A stretch of 64,000 bases of DNA, taken from a phage. This document shows, one piece after another, positions 1,623-64,000 of this stretch; the stretch's first letter is position 1; every line of letters begins with the position of its first letter. The DNA lies in assembly GCA_025611195.1 (NCBI GenBank), contig GCA_025611195.1_4718.2. The stretch is one strand, 5' to 3'. The notes beneath the pieces were generated by a model, which worked only from the letters and a program-made list of their open reading frames with translations, made no database searches and had not been told where the DNA came from. A program made the translations under genes and the position numbers.

Positions 1623-4600
1623 TACATAAACTCCTCGATGATGCAAATCCCGTCAGCGCCACGCCCACCACGCATAACGGTTCCAGTGTAACCGTTATCG
1701 TAAGCGCCGCCACCGCCCGAACCTCGTGCGAGGCCGTTTGACCCACCGCCAACAGCTGCACGACCACCGCCACCCCAATATGACGCACCCCCACCACCAC
1801 ATACAGGAAATGCGCCAGCTTGACCGTCATCACCATCACCACCTGAAATGCGTATATCCCCGGTACTAGGTACACCACCGCTGCCACCGCCAGTGTTTGT
1901 GACGGTTGTTTTTCCTGCACCTTGCCCACCGGGAGCAGTCAGCAGGGATGCAAATTTACTATCCCCGCCCCTGTTTCCAGTTGTTGCCCCGGAACCGCCA
2001 GTGCCACCAGAACCAATTACAACAGAATAACTAGTAGCTGCTACCGTTATAACCGAAATTACTGTTGCCCCGGCCCCACCGCCAGCACCAAAAAACGTTT
2101 CGCTGCCGGAAAAAGCCTGACAACCGCCGCCACCGCCACCGCCGCCGGTTATCGTTACTCTAATCCGTTTTGTTCCTTGTGTTGGGGTGTACGTCCCTGA
2201 CGATGTGAAAACACGCATGTTCAGTAAACGTCCGACATATCCACTAGAATCGGCTAAACCAAGATCTTTAGCTGCTAACGTGATATTAGCTGTGCCATCG
2301 AAAGGTTTACCGTTAATCGTGCGTGCCGTCTGCAGCTTCGTGGCCGTTGCTGCGTTTCCTGATGTATTCTGGTTTCCCGCGGCGTTAACACCTGGTAGAT
2401 TGATGTTCGCACTACCGTCGAAAGACACCCCACCAATAGTGCGGGCTGTTTTCAGTTTTGTCGCCGTGGCAGCATTACCGGTCGTGTCTTGGTTACCGGT
2501 GGTGTTTACCCCAGGTAGGTTGATATTGGCTGTTCCGTTAAATGAAACACCACCAATCGTCCTTGCCGTTTGCAACTTCGTTGCGGATGCCGCATTCCCC
2601 GTGGTGTTTTGGTTACCCGTCGCATTCACGCCTGGGATGCTATCCTTAGATGTGTAGATCTGTGCCCATTCCGACCAGTTCGAGTCGGCCGCATCACGAC
2701 GTGAACGTAGGTAAGCTGGAGCGTGTGCGCCTGAGGTACCTGACCACCCAATGAGGATTTCACCTTCACCGACCGATGAAGCCCCTTTAAGATGAATGAT
2801 GTTACCATAAGCGGTGGGATATCCGTTATTGTACGCTTCATACATCTGGATGCCCGCATTGCTGCCCTGAGCCGTGTTAGCTAAGGCCGTAACACGACCT
2901 TTGGAAGCGAGAGCGTTAATACTGAAGCTAATATCCTTAGTACCGTCAAAGGCGACCCCATTAATCTTCCGTGCTGTTTGGAGTTTCGTAGCAGTAGCCG
3001 CATTACCAGAGGTACTCTGATTACCTGCTTTGTTCACGCCCGGTAAATCAATGTTGGCTGTTCCATCAAAGGACACACCCCCGATGGTTCTCGCTGTCTG
3101 GAGTTTTGTTGCTGAACCAGCGTTTCCAGAAGTGCTTTGATTACCTGCCGCGTTGACACCCGGTAGGTCAATGCTAGCAGAACCATCAAAAGAAACTCCA
3201 CCGATCGTGATCGGTGTTTTCAATTTCGTGGCTGTCGCAGCATTACCCGTCGTATTCTGATTGCCAGCAGCATTAACACCAGGTAATGCGATATCGGTCG
3301 TACCATCGAACGCAACACCACCGACTTTACGGGCGGTCTGTAGCTTGGTCGCTGTAGCCGCGTTGCCGCTGGTATTTTGCGTGCCTGCTTTATTTACGCC
3401 AGGCAAATCAATGTTCGCAGTACCATCAAAAGAAACACCCCCGATGGTTCTCGCGGTCTCAAGTTTGGTTGCGCTTCCTGCGTTTCCGCTGGTGCTTTGA
3501 TTTCCCGCTGCATCAACACCTGGTAGACTGATGCTGGCCGAACCATCGAAACTCACACCGCCGATAGTAACAGCGGTTTTCAACTTCGTCGCCGTTGCTG
3601 CGTTACCGGTTGTATTTTGATTGCCTGTCGCATTAACGCCCGGTAATACAATATCCGCTGTTCCGTCAAAGGCAACGCCACCGATTCTACGTGCAGTTTG
3701 TAGCTTGGTTGCACTAGCAGCGTTACCGCTGGTATTCTGGGTGCCAGCTTTGTTAACACCGGGGAGATCGATATTAGCAGAACCATCGAAGCTGACGCCA
3801 CCTATCGTTCTTGCAGTAGCGAGTTTAGCTGCTGTGGCTGCATTATTACCCACTTTCAGCCAATCATCCCATGGACCATCCTGGCCGTTCCATGATGCCG
3901 TTAAACTACGTACGTAAATATTGCCGGTACGTACAGTGTAACGTTGCGTTCCACCGAATTGTCCGGCAGGGAGCACTTCAAGGTAACCTGCAGCATTTGC
4001 TTCAGGGAAATTGTGGGCGACGTCCGCGTTCGTTGATACTGGTTTAGACCAAATACCCACAGACGCTTCAACCGGACCGTAAGTATTCAGATTTGCGTCG
4101 GTGGGGAGCTGTCCTCGAAAACGTTGGAATTGTGTTGCCGATAACCCCAACGTTGTTTGCATGCTTTCAATGCTGGATTGCTGTAGTAACGTTCGTGCTG
4201 TCGACGTAATCACGGCAAGCGCAACTTTATTAACGCCGGTGAAATACGGGAGTTTGTCTGCTGATGTCGCTAAACCTGAAAAGGCGGTCAGTAATGCGTT
4301 AAGGGGCTGCTTCCCAGCTAACGCATTTGTTACCGTCGTTGCGAAATTAGGATCACTTCCTATAGCTCGAGCCAGCTTATTAAGCGTATTTAGCGTCGCT
4401 GGTGATGAGTCGATCAGCGCTGCGATCGCACGCATCACAAATTCCGTGTTGGCAATCTGTTGACTGCTATTGTTAACTGCTGCGGTGGGCGCTGCTGGCG
4501 TACCAGTGAATACAGGGCTATTAAGATCCGCTTTGAGGGCGATGAGGCGTTTAAGCGCTTCGACATCAACTTTCAGGTTTTCCCATCCGATGAGAGAACC

Positions 4601-6193: not shown

Positions 6194-7948
6194 TTATGCT
6201 GCTACATATCCAGGCCAACGTTCTCTTGGCCAGTTTGTTGCGCCCTGTCCAACGTTGTCCTTACCAGAAATTACGTTACTTACATCCCATCCACTCAGAT
6301 CCTGATTGAACGCGGTGTTTTCGCGCATCATGAGATCGATCTTACGTAGTGAACGGGTATTCCAGCCGGAAATGTCTTGGTTGAATGCTGTATTGTAGGC
6401 AAACATGTTAGACACGCTTTGTAATTTTGAGGTGTTCCAACCACTGATGTCGCTATTGAACGGCATGCTTGAGAACATGCTGCTCGCATCAACAAGGCTG
6501 TCGGTTTTCCAATTAACCAGTTTATCACCATCAAGTGCAGCGCTGCTGCTGAACATAAAACTCATGTCGTTAACTTTGGACACATCCCATTTATCCAACC
6601 CGTTACCCACGAACGCAGGACAGGACGAGAACATATAACTCATATTAGTAACCCGACTCACATTCCATTTACTGAAGTCGAGGTTAAGTTTCTGACACCC
6701 TAAGAAGGTTTTAGACATGTTGGTGATACGACTAACATCCCACTCTTGGATGTTGGGGTCGTTAAGTGTCGTTAAATAGTTGAACAACATCGCTAACGAC
6801 GTCCATTTCTCTGGAATCCGGTTTGGTACCGTACGAAGCGATGCGAGGTTGTTGGTTGACGGAGAGCAGAACATGCCGTTATCCCAATTTACGATCTCCG
6901 TAATTTTGGACCCTTTGATCGTCTGAGTGACGTTACCATCTTTCACCATACCTGTAGCGACGATGGTATATTCACCGGTGTCCGCATAATCGTGGGAGTA
7001 GGAGTTGTTGCTTGAGGTCTCCGTTACTTTATTCCCATCACCCCAATCGATATTGACCTTATCCCATCCACCTAGATAGAACTGTACTTTGCCTCCGGTG
7101 GCTTTTAGGATGTATTTACCCCCATTGTCTGTATAATAACAGACGACCATCGAACCGTACAGATTACCTATCTGCCAATCATCCTTTTGCGTTATTGCGA
7201 TTTGCGCCGCACCACGCTGTACGAAGAGTACCGTACGATTCTCGGCAGTCTGTAATGTGGTTATTGCCTGAGCCTTATCGTCCTCGCTAATTTCGCCAGA
7301 CACCACCAAAGCGCTTAACATCCTTTCGAAGTATTCGATCGGTAACTCGGTTCCAACAGACTTATCAACAGACGATACGGCAAGATCACCCAATGCTGCG
7401 GTGGTAGCCAACGCCAATGAACCCTTGGTCATATCTGTTTCTTGGATGTAATGCAGTCCTGTAAGCTGGTACGCTTGAATAATAGTAATCAGGTTCAGCG
7501 TATCGTTAACGACCTGTACCTGTAAATTCCCGGACCATACATAACTGCTTTCAGCAATCGGTAGTTCGACCGACTGAATACCCGATGTTTCAAAGGTGAT
7601 CTTCTTATTAAGATCGGTTTCCAGGAAATCAACCGCGAGGTCGAAATTCATGCCGTACTTTTCAGCGATGGAATCTACGATATTCTTGAAAGCAACATCT
7701 GTGCTTACGATAAAACGTAACGGAATTCCTGTAAACGCTTTAGCGATATCTCGACGAACATACGTAAGCGATTGTTCGAAGAAATAGGGACTGTTATCTC
7801 CAGGCTTGATGGTTACCTGACACGCTTCAGGATATTCAGCTGGGATGAACGATTCGAATTTAACATCAGATTCCTTCAACGAAAGCTTGTTATTTCGGTT
7901 CACTAACGCCAGAAGATCGGCTTTCCATCCGGGGTAAACTGTAGACAT
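6194..7948 (-). CDS. fibre-family protein: shared N-terminal module plus C-terminal DUF285/BspA-type repeats
   Basis: N-terminus MSTVYPGWKADLLALVNRNN... is paralogous to three other products. C-terminal half has repeated WDVS.V.NMS.MF..C.AFNQDISGW units typical of DUF285 (Mycoplasma/BspA-like) repeats. Start moved to ATG 7948 (GGAGTG upstream). Confidence 0.7.
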   Translation of the reverse strand: MSTVYPGWKADLLALVNRNNKLSLKESDVKFESFIPAEYPEACQVTIKPGDNSPYFFEQSLTYVRRDIAKAFTGIPLRFIVSTDVAFKNIVDSIAEKYGMNFDLAVDFLETDLNKKITFETSGIQSVELPIAESSYVWSGNLQVQVVNDTLNLITIIQAYQLTGLHYIQETDMTKGSLALATTAALGDLAVSSVDKSVGTELPIEYFERMLSALVVSGEISEDDKAQAITTLQTAENRTVLFVQRGAAQIAITQKDDWQIGNLYGSMVVCYYTDNGGKYILKATGGKVQFYLGGWDKVNIDWGDGNKVTETSSNNSYSHDYADTGEYTIVATGMVKDGNVTQTIKGSKITEIVNWDNGMFCSPSTNNLASLRTVPNRIPEKWTSLAMLFNYLTTLNDPNIQEWDVSRITNMSKTFLGCQKLNLDFSKWNVSRVTNMSYMFSSCPAFVGNGLDKWDVSKVNDMSFMFSSSAALDGDKLVNWKTDSLVDASSMFSSMPFNSDISGWNTSKLQSVSNMFAYNTAFNQDISGWNTRSLRKIDLMMRENTAFNQDLSGWDVSNVISGKDNVGQGATNWPRERWPGYVAA

Positions 7949-17319: not shown

Positions 17320-17368
17320 GGTGAAGCTGATTACTGCATTGCTTCACCTAGGTAATATAGCCGTGAAA
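17320..17368 (-). promoter_or_regulatory. candidate early-type promoter: TTTCACGGCTATATTAC followed by 8-bp stem-loop
   Basis: Minus strand reads TTTCACGGCTATATTAC (plus 17352..17368), then hairpin GGTGAAGC...GCTTCACC (17320..17348), about 73 nt upstream of ATG 17278. The same 17-mer recurs at 45952..45968 and, as a variant, at 63985..64000. Confidence 0.5.
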
Positions 17369-34802: not shown

Positions 34803-35822
34803 TTACACCGCCACCTTAGCCTTGATAGCCGGATGTGATTGATATCCGACGAACACAAAGTCTTCGTAACGGTAATCCGTAATACTTTCCGGTTTACGTA
34901 CGATTGTTAGCTTCGGTAATGGATACGGCTCACGGCTGAGCTGCTCTTTAACCTGTTCGAAGTGGTTGTGATAGATGTGGCAATCTCCACCCGTCCACAC
35001 GAACTCACCAACGTCCATATTCAGCTGTTGGGCAAGCATATGCGTCAGCAACGAATATGATGCGATGTTGAACGGTTTCCCGAGCACTGCGTCGCACGAA
35101 CGCTGGTAAAGCTGACAGGATAAGGCACGTGTTGGTACGTTATGCGCATTCAACCAAAGTTCTGTTTCACTGTGTCGTACATCATCCGTAACCCACTGGG
35201 TTCTTAATACGTCATTGCGTTGAACATAACCAACGCGTTCATCGATGGTGAGCTCGTGGGTATAGAACTGATAAAATGAATGGCACGGAGCGAGATGCAT
35301 ATCGTCTAAATCACCTACGTTCCACGCGCTAACGATGATCCGTCGAGAATCGGGGTCTTCTTTAAGCTGGCGCATCACGTTTGCAATCTGATCGTGATGT
35401 CTAACATACACGAGGTGTTTTAGCATACCGTCATTAAGAATGCCGCAATACTCATAGCCGCGTTGCATCAACTCACGAGTACGTTCTGTATCGTGCGGAA
35501 CAACCACTTTGTAGTCGATCCATTCCCGCCATTGTTTGCCGTAAATCGGTCCTAGATTCCCTTCTTCGTCAGCCCACTCATTCCAAATACGAACACCGTT
35601 ATCTTGAAGATAAGCAACGTTTGTGTCGCCGTTAAGAAACCAGAGCAGTTCGTGGATAACGCTCTTAAGGTGAATCTTCTTGGTGGTTACCAGCGGGAAC
35701 CCTTTCTTCAAGTCAAAACGCATCTGACGTCCGAATACAGAACGGGTCCCGGTGCCTGTACGATCGGCTTTATCACGGCCGTTATCCATGATGTCTTGCA
35801 AAAGGTCCAAATACTGTTTCAT
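34803..35822 (-). CDS. thyA: thymidylate synthase with two insertions
   Basis: Near-colinear with E. coli ThyA (MKQYL.L.Q..., DRTGTGT, LLWFL.GDTN, SAWNV, catalytic [21 protein letters not shown]). Two inserts of about 35 and 40 aa, after WREW and after FYQFY; 339 aa against 264. Confidence 0.9.
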
Positions 35823-36022
35823 TTTAATCCTCTAAGTGTTTCAAGTAGTTCCTGAAATTTGTAACGATATTTAGAATCACTTAACGTGTAACAGCAACCA
35901 CGTAACACGTTATGCGCGTAATCAGCTTGTAAACCACGAACCTTCGGATCCAGTGATAGATTCAATGACGCGTCATCAAAAATCCACGCTTCAATGTTCT
36001 TCTTAGATTCCTTCGTTAACAT
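35819..36022 (-). CDS. hypothetical small protein
   Basis: Start moved to ATG 36022 (GAGGTGA upstream); the ORF-track start lies inside the stem-loop. ATGA overlap with thyA. Confidence 0.45.
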
Positions 36023-36146
36023 CGTTTTCACCTCGTAGTAAAAGTAAATAGAGTTTTGTCGAGACGCCCTAATTACATACAACGTAGGTTCTCCTGGCTT
36101 CAGAGAATTCTTAAAATCCGTTAGTTTTGATGGACAGGATAAGACA

Positions 36147-36175
36147 GCATAAAAGCCTCCCATTACGGGAGGCTT
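36147..36175 (-). promoter_or_regulatory. stem-loop AAGCCTCCC-ATTAC-GGGAGGCTT followed on the minus strand by TTTTATGCTG
   Basis: 9-bp stem 36153..36175 after the stop of 36187..36735; TTTTATGC at 36147..36154 (minus). Confidence 0.55.
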
Positions 36176-36186
36176 CATTAATCAGC

Positions 36187-36735
36187 TTATTTCACAAGAA
36201 CAGCGAATTCGAGAACGTAAATAGCTTCATCGTCCATCGGATTTGTTGTGGTATAGCCAACGAAGCAATAACCCATATCCACGATAAACTCGCTAAGTTT
36301 ATCGATGACTGATGCCTCGATGCGATCATCAACAGACAGACGACATTTACGGGTTATGTTTTGCCCGCGAGGAACACCAGCCAACACGGATAGAAAATGT
36401 ACGATCCGATTATTGGTTGTGAACTGCACGTAATCATCGTAGTGCTTAAGGTCTTTCATCGCAGACTCTACCGTCATCCGGCGACCAGGTGATACATACT
36501 CAGAATAAGAATAAGCTGCAATCGTGCGGCGGTCTTCAGTGAGGTAAGTATTCCCTTCGGGATGATAGCTCTCGATTGTTCCGTCTTCATAGGCGACGGT
36601 TACAACAGGTGCGCCGTACTCGTCGCGACCGAAATCAATCTTACATTTATTCGAAAGCGGTAGAACTGTACAAGGCTTTGCATTGTTCTCATCGGGGAGA
36701 TCGTAACCACTCATCATTTTCAAGAACATAGACAT
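36187..36735 (-). CDS. hypothetical protein, tandem paralog A
   Basis: MSMFLKMMSGYDLPDENNAKPCTV... resembles the 36822..37355 product. Confidence 0.55.
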   Translation of the reverse strand: MSMFLKMMSGYDLPDENNAKPCTVLPLSNKCKIDFGRDEYGAPVVTVAYEDGTIESYHPEGNTYLTEDRRTIAAYSYSEYVSPGRRMTVESAMKDLKHYDDYVQFTTNNRIVHFLSVLAGVPRGQNITRKCRLSVDDRIEASVIDKLSEFIVDMGYCFVGYTTTNPMDDEAIYVLEFAVLVK

Positions 36736-36821
36736 AATAGAACCTCATGATAATAGATAATAGAAATGATAGATAGTACAACAAATTGAGGGGGTATTAT
36801 CCCACCCCCTCGCAGGGATTA

Positions 36822-37355
36822 CTACTTAACGATCGCGATGATTTTGCCGCTCGCACCGGCGTAATATGCTGTTAATTCACCAGTAAACAACTCTTGTAAA
36901 AGACGATTTACGTGACTAACAAAGTTAGGATTGTCTGATTTTACAAACTCGATATTGCGCGTTTGTTTTATATCACGATCGATTAAACGGATTTCCAACA
37001 ACGCACAAATAAGGCGATCGTCGAGTTCACCACTCGCATCCAGCACTTCCCCATACTTCGTAGCACGGACGTCCGCATACATACGGTCAACATCATCCTT
37101 CCCAAAACCACAGGAATAGGCATACGTTGCGATGGTGTTACCATTGTCCATCACATAAACGTTACCACCTGGGTAATCGATAAATCGTTGATCCTTATCA
37201 CCATGAGCGACGAACTCCAGTGTCGGTCTACCCATCGAATCACGGTTGAATTCAATTGTGGTCAAGCGATCTGGTACCACATGCAACGTAAATGGTTTCG
37301 CATTGTTACGATCGCTAGTATCGCAGTTGCCCATTACTTTTACAATAACACTCAT
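36822..37355 (-). CDS. hypothetical protein, tandem paralog B
   Basis: MSVIVKVMGNCDTSDRNNAKPFTL... resembles the 36187..36735 product; AAGGA before ATG. Confidence 0.55.
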   Translation of the reverse strand: MSVIVKVMGNCDTSDRNNAKPFTLHVVPDRLTTIEFNRDSMGRPTLEFVAHGDKDQRFIDYPGGNVYVMDNGNTIATYAYSCGFGKDDVDRMYADVRATKYGEVLDASGELDDRLICALLEIRLIDRDIKQTRNIEFVKSDNPNFVSHVNRLLQELFTGELTAYYAGASGKIIAIVK

Positions 37356-37429
37356 GTTTTATTCCTTAGTAGTCCTAGTAGTAGTATTGAGGAATAGCAC
37401 CTCATTAGATAGTCTATTTTGGTAATGAT

Positions 37430-37729
37430 TTACTGAAACAGGACATTAAACTCGACGAGATACCCATCGGATCTATCACCACGATATCTGTTGCAGAAAA
37501 CACCGAATTTCATCAAGAACTCACATAACTCTTCGGCTTTGTATAACGGAATACGATTTTCGTCGAGCAGAGGACACATATGGCTAACCAGCTCCGACGA
37601 ATCAACGCAACACAAATAAAGAAGGAACCGAACAATAGCTCGGTTCTTAGTGAAGCTCTCGAATTCACCTGCGGTTCTGAACTCATCGAGGAGCTTTGTC
37701 GTTTTCTTCAATCGTTCACGATCAAGCAT
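37430..37729 (-). CDS. hypothetical protein
   Basis: 99-aa ORF with GAGGT before ATG. Confidence 0.5.
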   Translation of the reverse strand: MLDRERLKKTTKLLDEFRTAGEFESFTKNRAIVRFLLYLCCVDSSELVSHMCPLLDENRIPLYKAEELCEFLMKFGVFCNRYRGDRSDGYLVEFNVLFQ

Positions 37730-37742
37730 GTTAACCTCAATA

Positions 37743-37783
37743 CGAACATAACCCTCCTCCGACCCATCAGGGAAGGAGGAGGG
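37743..37783 (-). promoter_or_regulatory. stem-loop CCCTCCTCC/GGAGGAGGG (14-nt loop) followed on the minus strand by TTATGTTCG
   Basis: 9-bp stem 37752..37783 after the stop of 37793..38107; the plus strand carries AATATGCTG on the other side. Confidence 0.5.
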
Positions 37784-37792
37784 AATATGCTG

Positions 37793-38107
37793 TTATTTTG
37801 TTTTAGGTGTTGAACCGTTCTTCTTGAAGTCGGATTCGTATTTCACGTTAGAATCGAGAACCTCACGAACGGTTTTATCCGTACAGCCACGAGCGATGTA
37901 TGCATTAAGATCATCACGTAATTTACGCATTGTTGTTTTATCCGCATCAGAAATATCTGACTTGGTAAGACGGAATGCAATTGCGTCACGGATTTTATTC
38001 AGCGTCGCTGGGTTAATACGCTGTTCTGCAAATACCGCTTTGATGAACTTATCGCTATCTTTCGAAGCGACGGCAGCATCAAGAATCTCAATATGCTTTT
38101 CAGACAT
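37793..38107 (-). CDS. hypothetical protein
   Basis: 104-aa ORF. Confidence 0.5.
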   Translation of the reverse strand: MSEKHIEILDAAVASKDSDKFIKAVFAEQRINPATLNKIRDAIAFRLTKSDISDADKTTMRKLRDDLNAYIARGCTDKTVREVLDSNVKYESDFKKNGSTPKTK

Positions 38108-56284: not shown

Positions 56285-56323
56285 GCATAAACATCCTCCT
56301 CCTACCATGCGGGCAGGAGGAGG
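56285..56323 (-). promoter_or_regulatory. stem-loop CCTCCTCCT/AGGAGGAGG followed on the minus strand by TTTATGCTG
   Basis: 9-bp stem 56295..56323 after the stop of 56335..56748; TTTATGC at 56285..56291 (minus), about 70 nt upstream of ATG 56216. Confidence 0.55.
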
Positions 56324-63962: not shown

Positions 63963-64000
63963 CTCTATGACTTTGTTCATAGAGGTAATATAAGCGTGAA
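63963..64000 (-). promoter_or_regulatory. candidate early-type promoter variant: TTCACGCTTATATTAC next to 8-bp stem-loop (truncated by window end)
   Basis: Minus strand reads ...TTCACGCTTATATTAC (plus 63985..64000) then hairpin CTCTATGA...TCATAGAG (63963..63984), about 96 nt upstream of ATG 63889. Same layout as 17320..17368. Confidence 0.4.

Follow-up and report, generated by a model that had tools for sequence, protein, structure and literature searches.

Two adjacent genes in a Goslar-like jumbo phage

Genes A and B are adjacent on the minus strand of a 64,000-nucleotide (nt) stretch of phage DNA (NCBI GenBank assembly GCA_025611195.1, contig GCA_025611195.1_4718.2), to which we refer throughout as the window. 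An original prediction made from the DNA alone had described them as a tandem paralog pair that arose by recent duplication, and had proposed pairwise alignment, dN/dS (the ratio of nonsynonymous to synonymous substitution rates) and structure prediction as checks; its placement of two adjacent genes of about 180 amino acids (aa) is exact. The letters A, B and C denote open reading frames (ORFs) of the window, and D, E, B', P0126 and P0127 denote members found in its relatives. A 2-kb query around the pair matches Escherichia phage vB_EcoM_Goslar (Goslar), known from the literature as a nucleus-forming jumbo phage of the Chimalliviridae, over its full length at 94.3% nucleotide identity. The genes and their domains are as follows (H, helix; E, strand).

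36187-36735, minus strand: gene A, an ORF of 182 aa, orthologue of Goslar gp143
36496-36735, minus strand: N-terminal domain of A, comprising seven short beta strands (about residues 1-80); also present in B and in PHROG 10337/10807
36190-36495, minus strand: C-terminal domain of A (about residues 81-182), order H-H-H-E-H-E-E; homologous to ORF C and to the C-terminal half of P0126
36822-37355, minus strand: gene B, an ORF of 177 aa, orthologue of Goslar gp144
37107-37355, minus strand: N-terminal domain of B (about residues 1-83)
37430-37729, minus strand: ORF C (99 aa), an A-type C-terminal domain encoded by itself

The Goslar orthologues, gp143 (QBO63936 / YP_009820828; Goslar_00143) and gp144 (QBO63937 / YP_009820829; Goslar_00144), share 96% and about 97-99% aa identity with A and B, respectively; both are minus-strand genes that carry the GenBank label 'hypothetical protein'. 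The Goslar locus and the window agree in gene order, terminators and flanking genes with no difference of substance, and represent separate isolates.

Similarity of A and B is confined to the N-terminal domain

The sequence similarity between the A and B proteins is real and far beyond chance, and is confined to approximately the first 80 residues. BLASTP aligns residues 1-78 of A with residues 1-81 of B (28 of 81 identical, 35%; E 8e-13) and no other segment. A phmmer search of the window's 712 stop-to-stop ORFs recovers either protein with the other as query, at an E of about 1e-10, and finds no third ORF with the N-terminal domain, and a hidden Markov model built from 94 family sequences matches only A (3.5e-27) and B (5.6e-24) among the window ORFs. 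When the orthologue-family alignments of A and B are compared by hhalign, their N-terminal halves match with 98.3% probability (E 1.8e-14), and the two motifs that the proteins have in common, MS..K.M...D..NNAKP and GN.Y...T.A.Y.YS, both lie between residue 1 and about residue 80. The C-terminal halves of A and B yield no sequence or profile signal (hhalign probability 0.1-0.2%), and a second hhalign comparison that included the bridging members P0126, P0128 and C still yielded none. The C-terminal half of A is weakly similar to that of D (E 0.033), and C-terminal halves overall fall into at least three sequence groups. The description of A and B as tandem paralogs of unknown function therefore holds, the pairwise alignment being significant; the statement that the proteins are similar is correct for the first 80 or so residues, which contain the motifs originally picked out, and does not extend to the C-terminal halves.

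The duplication is old

The case for a recent duplication was that the genes are adjacent and similar in length, share an N-terminal motif, and each have a G+C-rich hairpin beside them. No nucleotide similarity between A and B is detected by blastn with short words, and the region contains no DNA that is repeated in the window; with this null result and an aa identity of 35% over only 80 residues, the duplication is not recent. Each gene is also conserved separately in diverged relatives: among dozens of Goslar-like contigs, orthologues of A form 36 clusters with 68-97% identity, and those of B form 89 clusters with 64-99% identity. In Nei-Gojobori comparisons among the window, Goslar and two diverged relatives, dN/dS is 0.05-0.13 for A and 0.07-0.15 for B, indicating purifying selection on both genes; the N-terminal halves (0.02-0.06) are under tighter constraint than the C-terminal halves (0.08-0.22). 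The duplication is thus old, and both copies have been kept separately by purifying selection; the claim of recency is refuted.

Predicted structures of A and B

Structures were predicted with AlphaFold2 from alignments containing orthologues and about 30 diverse N-domain relatives. The model of A has a mean predicted local distance difference test score (pLDDT) of 91.9 and a predicted template modeling score (pTM) of 0.80, and displays a clear two-domain plan: strands at residues 3-8, 22-27, 32-37, 43-48, 54-57, 63-67 and 70-75 are followed by a C-terminal half with the elements H83-94, H99-106, H109-118, E127-132, H141-153, E157-163 and E173-181. The model of B (mean pLDDT 84.9, pTM 0.58) has the same order of elements, seven strands and then H-H-H-E-H-E-E, with nearly equal lengths. 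Structure prediction thus gives the two proteins the same secondary-structure order, and the models support the view that A and B would be whole-gene paralogs with a fast-evolving C-terminal half.

Foldseek searches of the PDB provide no convincing match to either model (lowest E 0.08 with A, 0.15 with B; TM-score about 0.2). Among predicted viral structures, the best match to A is Goslar gp143, followed by uncharacterised proteins of three other chimalliviruses, Erwinia phage MadMel, Pseudomonas phage Phabio and 201phi2-1; a protein of Caulobacter phage CcrSC is also matched.

ORF C is a stand-alone C-terminal domain

ORF C aligns end to end with residues 81-182 of A (BLASTP E 1e-7, with support from phmmer). 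It is present in Goslar with 97% aa identity, where it is not annotated on the minus strand of the GenBank record, and it is called as a gene in the related metagenomic contigs L003 and L012. Its dN/dS is 0.11-0.17, and its substitutions fall mainly on third positions of the minus-strand frame (11 of 17 relative to L003, and 14 of 20 relative to L012). The GenBank and RefSeq records of Goslar instead annotate a plus-strand coding sequence, Goslar_00145, equivalent to window positions 37580-37813, for which the substitution pattern is the opposite. Because both the substitution patterns and the homology back the minus-strand ORF C, Goslar_00145 is probably a mis-call. A tblastn search with ORF C matches Goslar only, and reveals no further stand-alone relatives of this domain.

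Terminators, leader and candidate promoters

The non-coding features of the locus are listed here.

37747-37785, minus strand: hairpin 3' of the capsid 'latch' gene (-25.6 kcal/mol), followed by TTATG; the start of ORF C is 25 nt downstream
37356-37429, minus strand: C-B spacer, containing the array leader TATCTAATGAGGTG.(A/T)ATTCCTCA.TACTAC
36788-36811, minus strand: terminator hairpin after B, GAGGGGGTGGG-ATAATA-CCCCCTC followed by a T-rich tail
36148-36175, minus strand: terminator hairpin after A, AAGCCTCCC-GTAAT-GGGAGGCTT, followed by TTTTATG (TATG at 36151-36148)

Folded as minus-strand RNA, the hairpin at 36788-36811 has a free energy of -20.9 kcal/mol (z -2.6) and that at 36153-36175 has -19.9 kcal/mol (z -4.75). 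Both appear as 'putative transcriptional terminator' features in the Goslar record, and their sequences are mutually unrelated; the hairpin that follows B' in L003 is identical to the one that follows B. The original prediction placed a GGAGG-type or GAGGGGGT hairpin before each gene and took this as a hint of duplication. Both hairpins do exist and are stable, but each is situated 3' of its gene in the direction of transcription, and the GGGAGG and GAGGGGG strings are arms of the hairpin stems, not ribosome-binding sites. The Shine-Dalgarno sequences are GAGG before A, AAGGA before B, and GAGG before ORF C. A role for the hairpins as ribosome-binding-site-type or duplicated elements is excluded by their 3' position, their differing sequences and their annotation as terminators. 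Moreover, strong hairpins of the CCCTCC...GGAGGG type are found in many intergenic spacers of the window, and they are thus a general form of transcript punctuation, unlinked to duplication. Taken with the divergence and separate conservation of the two genes, these features leave a recent duplication in which each copy carried its own upstream hairpin with a vanishingly small probability.

At least 11 minus-strand hairpins of the window end 0-4 nt before a TATG. These sites are at 56289, 55430, 49761, 44119, 37750, 36151, 27346, 21228, 14365, 6146 and 592; some are bidirectional, with TATG on either strand, and TATG with a stable upstream hairpin occurs at about three times the background frequency. 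In PhiKZ, TATG serves the non-virion RNA polymerase as its motif for late promoters and start sites (PMC4666361), and by analogy the hairpin-TATG sites look like punctuation in which a terminator is joined to a late promoter of this type. The hairpin at 37747-37785 would then serve as a terminator together with a candidate TATG-type promoter for a C-B unit, within which there is no terminator (the spacer 37356-37429 lacks stable structure, -3.8 kcal/mol).

The leader (TATCTAATGAGGTG.AATTCCTCA.TACTAC) lies at 37380-37425 on the minus strand of the window and includes a small GAGG...CCTC inverted repeat. It precedes B, D, E or P0126 and heads the gene array in every variant described below (L003 5250-5300; L005 5240-5300; L012 350-400; L011 5920-5960). 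A PhiKZ-type middle promoter was considered as an explanation for it and rejected, since the window has 8 instances of the pattern TTACC-N11-16-TA(A)TG against an expectation of 4.5, which does not amount to enrichment. Elsewhere in the window, a near-identical intergenic string, tcacggcTATATTAC, is found on the minus strand at 17359 and 45959, upstream of two minus-strand gene blocks, and also at 63992; it may be a candidate phage-specific (early?) promoter motif.

A variable gene array in close relatives

In the window, C, B and A form an array located between the capsid latch gene and the thymidylate synthase gene (thyA). We compared this array in Goslar-like contigs whose flanks are 89-95% identical to the window. 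Its members, in the order of transcription, are:

Window and Goslar: C, B, A
L003: C, D (200 aa), B', A
L005: D, B', A
L012: C, E (P0128, a B-like paralog), B, A
L011 (236 kb): P0126 only, a divergent A-type allele that occupies the slot of A

D and E each bring their own hairpin; as cassettes they are inserted inside the leader and are bounded by (A/G)TTACTAC microhomology. A further insertion, a gene of 287-294 aa with a DUF7448 domain (PF24240), is located between A and the gp142 orthologue in these four relatives (L003 7281-8165; L005 7281-8144; L011 6664-7527; L012 2325-3209). The window and Goslar lack it cleanly, and the junction in the window, at 36090-36095, is sharp. Since close relatives contain anywhere from one to four cassettes, the members of the array are most likely individually dispensable accessory genes. 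We note that Goslar-like contigs of about 235-249 kb with these genes are found in many NCBI assemblies labeled Salmonella enterica, E. coli (including O157), Shigella flexneri and Enterobacter hormaechei (proteins P0002, P0021, P0030, P0035 and P0037-P0079), which suggests that Goslar-like phages are frequently carried by, or co-sequenced with, clinical and food isolates.

Compared with the window, synonymous sites of the B' allele of L003 and L005 are saturated, and the N-terminal half of this allele is about 90% conserved as protein; the neighboring A in the same contigs is about 95% identical to the A of the window. Along the B gene the identity declines from about 90% to about 40%, and a recombination breakpoint at the domain boundary was considered. 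Synonymous divergence (dS) is already 0.7-1.4 in the N-terminal half, so the whole B allele is old with the N-terminal half more constrained, and domain swapping is not shown. The idea that E is a recent copy of B was likewise rejected, the only nucleotide match between them being 26 nt.

These comparisons bear on a different history, in which A and B were acquired independently from one mobile phage family at the same insertion hotspot and are not duplicates of each other. The N-terminal domain of A is closer to that of the L011 allele P0126 (distance 0.45) than to that of B (more than 0.6), the locus takes up foreign cassettes (D, E and the DUF7448 gene), and the C-terminal halves of A and B have no sequence similarity. 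In a neighbor-joining tree of 155 N-terminal domains, however, all Goslar-group copies (A, B, D, E, P0126 and P0127) form one 8-tip clade, a pattern that fits a lineage-specific expansion. A and B are also alike in length and in the order of secondary-structure elements through the C-terminal half, and their G+C content is that of the genome (A 0.452, B 0.438 and C 0.433; 0.458 for the window, with a standard deviation of 0.028 among 550-nt segments). We therefore regard separate acquisition as unlikely.

The N-terminal domain is widespread in phages of Proteobacteria

Searched against 1.84 billion representative proteins, a profile built from the N-terminal domains of A and B matched 182 representative clusters at E<=1e-3, 31 of them at 1e-10. 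Nearly all listed matches start the domain at residue 1-6, and in the 150 listed representatives, with the three exceptions of P0171, P0246 and P0260, the match begins between residues 1 and 19. The conserved columns K6, M8, D15, K20, G61-N62, Y64 and T71 are carried by both A and B. About 60% of the matches are proteins of 72-115 aa that contain the domain alone, and the others have unrelated C-terminal extensions of up to 481 aa; the N-terminal domain, like the C-terminal domain in ORF C, is thus established as existing on its own. Two long repeat proteins, P0246 and P0260 (Big_3_5; LRR/InlB-B-repeat), give weak matches in multiple stretches that we take as chance. An immunoglobulin-like N-terminal domain, suggested by weak repeated matches to Big_3_5 and InlB-B-repeat families, was rejected, as Foldseek lends it no support.

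The matches of the A+B profile in turn match phrog_10337 at 1e-9 to 1e-13, and hmmscan places A (2.4e-3 and 6.4e-3) and B (3.3e-7 and 6.2e-6) among the PHROGs as well. Neither A nor B has a match in Pfam at E<=1 or in NCBIfam, and PDB sequences give only short chance matches; no relative with a solved structure or a name emerged from any search. In the literature we found no discussion of Goslar gp143 or gp144, or of 201phi2-1 gp34.

By tblastn, the consensus N-terminal domain is found in 78 phage records, including 35 of Caulobacter phages, 19 of Erwinia phages (mostly RAY-like), and 12 of Acinetobacter phages with genomes of about 45 kb; 201phi2-1 (gp34), Phabio, Viktualia, Proteus phage 10, Pseudomonas phages and Goslar also carry the family. 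All of these records are labeled 'hypothetical', and in nearly every case the genome contains a single copy. Neither PhiKZ nor PhiPA3 is among the matches listed for the consensus domain (a listing that leaves out 18 records) or for a 201phi2-1-type member, and the family is thus not a core gene of the chimalliviruses; functional data from PhiKZ, which has no homologue among them, are not transferable. In the smaller phages the stand-alone homologue is an isolated small gene with large flanking spacers, situated at module boundaries. In Erwinia phage RAY (L002) and in Pseudomonas phage Phabio (L010), a tRNA-Asn gene (6821-6898 and 4318-4393, respectively) comes no more than about 1 kb after the single family member, gp198 and gp463, respectively, which hints at conserved locus synteny among distant chimalliviruses.

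Expression in Goslar and the possibility of a virion role

Both Goslar orthologues have been detected in purified virions. HOV27_gp143 (20,637.5 Da) was identified by 3 peptides at an estimated 4.5-10.5 copies per virion, and HOV27_gp144 (19,832.5 Da) by 2 peptides at an estimated 1.1-2.6 copies (Table S4, bioRxiv 10.64898/2026.04.21.720040), or about 7 and 1.7 copies, respectively; the listed masses agree with the translated Goslar genes, and expression of both is established. In the same table the non-virion proteins PhuZ and chimallin are at about 170 and 126, respectively (bioRxiv 10.64898/2026.04.21.720040). With such contamination, the trace values of gp143 and gp144 show that they are expressed and not that they are structural.

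These data raise the question of whether the family acts in morphogenesis, as a low-copy virion component or a head-assembly-associated factor such as a vertex- or portal-associated protein or an assembly chaperone. The estimate for gp143 fits the range of a 6-copy component, the array adjoins the gene for gp146, a 104-aa capsid 'latch' protein present at 55 copies (bioRxiv 10.64898/2026.04.21.720040; hypothetical in GenBank), and 201phi2-1 gp34 is near the tail tube and sheath genes. Furthermore, in six smaller phages or contigs the stand-alone homologue is only a few kb from terminase, portal or head genes, which makes a morphogenesis-associated role the main rival to the interpretation that we develop below; terminase-adjacent regions are, however, classic insertion sites for accessory genes too. 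Neither gp143 nor gp144 is among the 28 modeled Goslar virion proteins or the listed abundant unmodeled ones (bioRxiv 10.64898/2026.04.21.720040), and the contaminants PhuZ and chimallin exceed them 10-100-fold in that preparation. For 201phi2-1 gp34 the annotation mentions no mass spectrometry, whereas it does so for the neighbors gp30, gp32 and gp36, and it is unusual for genes of structural proteins to range from 1 to 4 copies among genomes that are nearly identical. A function in morphogenesis consequently seems improbable to us.

Neighboring genes

The genes that flank the array are as follows; an Rv2179c-like exonuclease gene also flanks the locus.

37793-38107, minus strand: capsid 'latch' gene, Goslar gp146 orthologue, 104 aa
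start near 36022, minus strand: gp142 orthologue, a short gene (67 aa in Goslar)
34803-35822, minus strand: thymidylate synthase gene (thyA)

The 119-aa ORF at 35819-36178 on the minus strand, whose Goslar orthologue is gp142, is over-extended; the extra part passes through the hairpin at 36153-36175 and the insertion-deletion junction at 36090-36095. The thymidylate synthase of the window is 339 aa long, a length that is kept across all related contigs. This noticeably exceeds the length of a typical bacterial ThyA, and insertions may be present.

Interpretation

A and B are old and diverged, and on balance they probably belong to a small tandem family, expanded within the Goslar-like chimalliviruses, of dispensable, moron-like genes whose products are host-directed and non-structural. 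Each of the two proteins is built from an all-beta N-terminal domain of about 80 residues, widespread in phages of Proteobacteria and often forming a protein of about 80 aa by itself, and a much faster evolving alpha/beta C-terminal domain of about 95-100 residues, of which the type present in A also constitutes ORF C. The genes form a cassette-like array of leader, ORF and terminator hairpin, and the cassettes, which are self-contained and belong to a family scattered patchily over unrelated phages, would be accessory in nature, of the 'moron' type, as opposed to core replication or virion genes. Its products may act as non-structural factors on the host or on a phage partner, with the constrained N-terminal domain presumably supplying a common binding or assembly function and the variable C-terminal domain the specificity, in the manner of host-takeover and counter-defence proteins. 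A bolder version of this proposal, which we put forward only tentatively, is that the N-terminal module may be an undescribed fold, and also a widespread and portable phage module by which variable C-terminal 'effector' domains are docked to a host or phage target that is itself conserved; the array (C, D/E, B, A) may then constitute a diversifying host-interaction or counter-defence locus of nucleus-forming phages.

Several observations weigh against an accessory, host-directed family. There is no functional homology of any kind in Pfam, NCBIfam, PDB sequences or the Foldseek search of the PDB, and the host-directed role thus derives from gene-content variation and architecture only. The ordinary G+C content of A, B and C shows no sign of recent import, no sigma-70-like promoter was found before these genes, and the reading of TATG as a promoter proceeds by analogy with PhiKZ. 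The neighbor-joining tree of N-terminal domains is without support values, the common fold suggested for the C-terminal halves of A and B reflects secondary-structure order only, and selection in the pairs tested is purifying, with no sign of positive selection. The trace detection in virions may leave room for a genuine low-copy virion role, to which the proximity of stand-alone homologues to head genes also points.

Both genes were already known as deposited hypothetical genes of Goslar, within an existing uncharacterised PHROG family. What is worth keeping is a confident two-domain model without a solved structural relative, an N-terminal module seen in no fewer than 182 clusters of proteins from unrelated phages of Proteobacteria, and a locus whose cassettes turn over among near-identical jumbo-phage genomes. 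Goslar is an experimental model for which CRISPRi-ART knock-down, green fluorescent protein (GFP) localization and electron cryomicroscopy are available, so that the family is directly testable; if its role did turn out to lie in host takeover or counter-defence, the domain as defined here would allow the module to be recognized in many phages.

Comparison with known systems

Morons, a concept of Juhala, Hendrix and co-workers, are autonomous accessory gene cassettes of phage genomes. The Goslar-type cassettes resemble them in that some close relatives have them, and others lack them, at the same point between two neighboring genes, and in that factor-independent terminators follow A and B (as well as D and E), with none between C and B. 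They differ from morons in that the locus has no sigma-70 promoter, as expected in a phage with phage-encoded RNA polymerases, in that the base composition of the cassettes is not different from that of the flanks, and in that the cassettes are mutually paralogous and not unrelated imports.

The N-terminal 80 or so residues of A and B match two PHROG families, phrog_10337 (a 99-position profile) and phrog_10807 (379 positions, of the Erwinia RAY gp198 type), both of 'unknown function'. A and B are weak, divergent members of phrog_10337 (A 2.4e-3, B 3.3e-7), and their C-terminal alpha/beta domain is in neither profile. In most phage records a consensus query for the family matches one place per genome, whereas Goslar-like phages have two to four members.

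Finally, Goslar and PhiKZ have two other paralogous families with which A and B might be compared, the PF12699 inner-body family and DUF7941, whose members are abundant virion proteins present at 50-2,150 copies (bioRxiv 10.64898/2026.04.21.720040). A and B have no Pfam match at all and thus match neither. DUF7941 is restricted to the chimalliviruses, whereas the family of A and B, present in virions only at trace level, is also distributed among phages of 45-60 kb and phiCbK-like phages.

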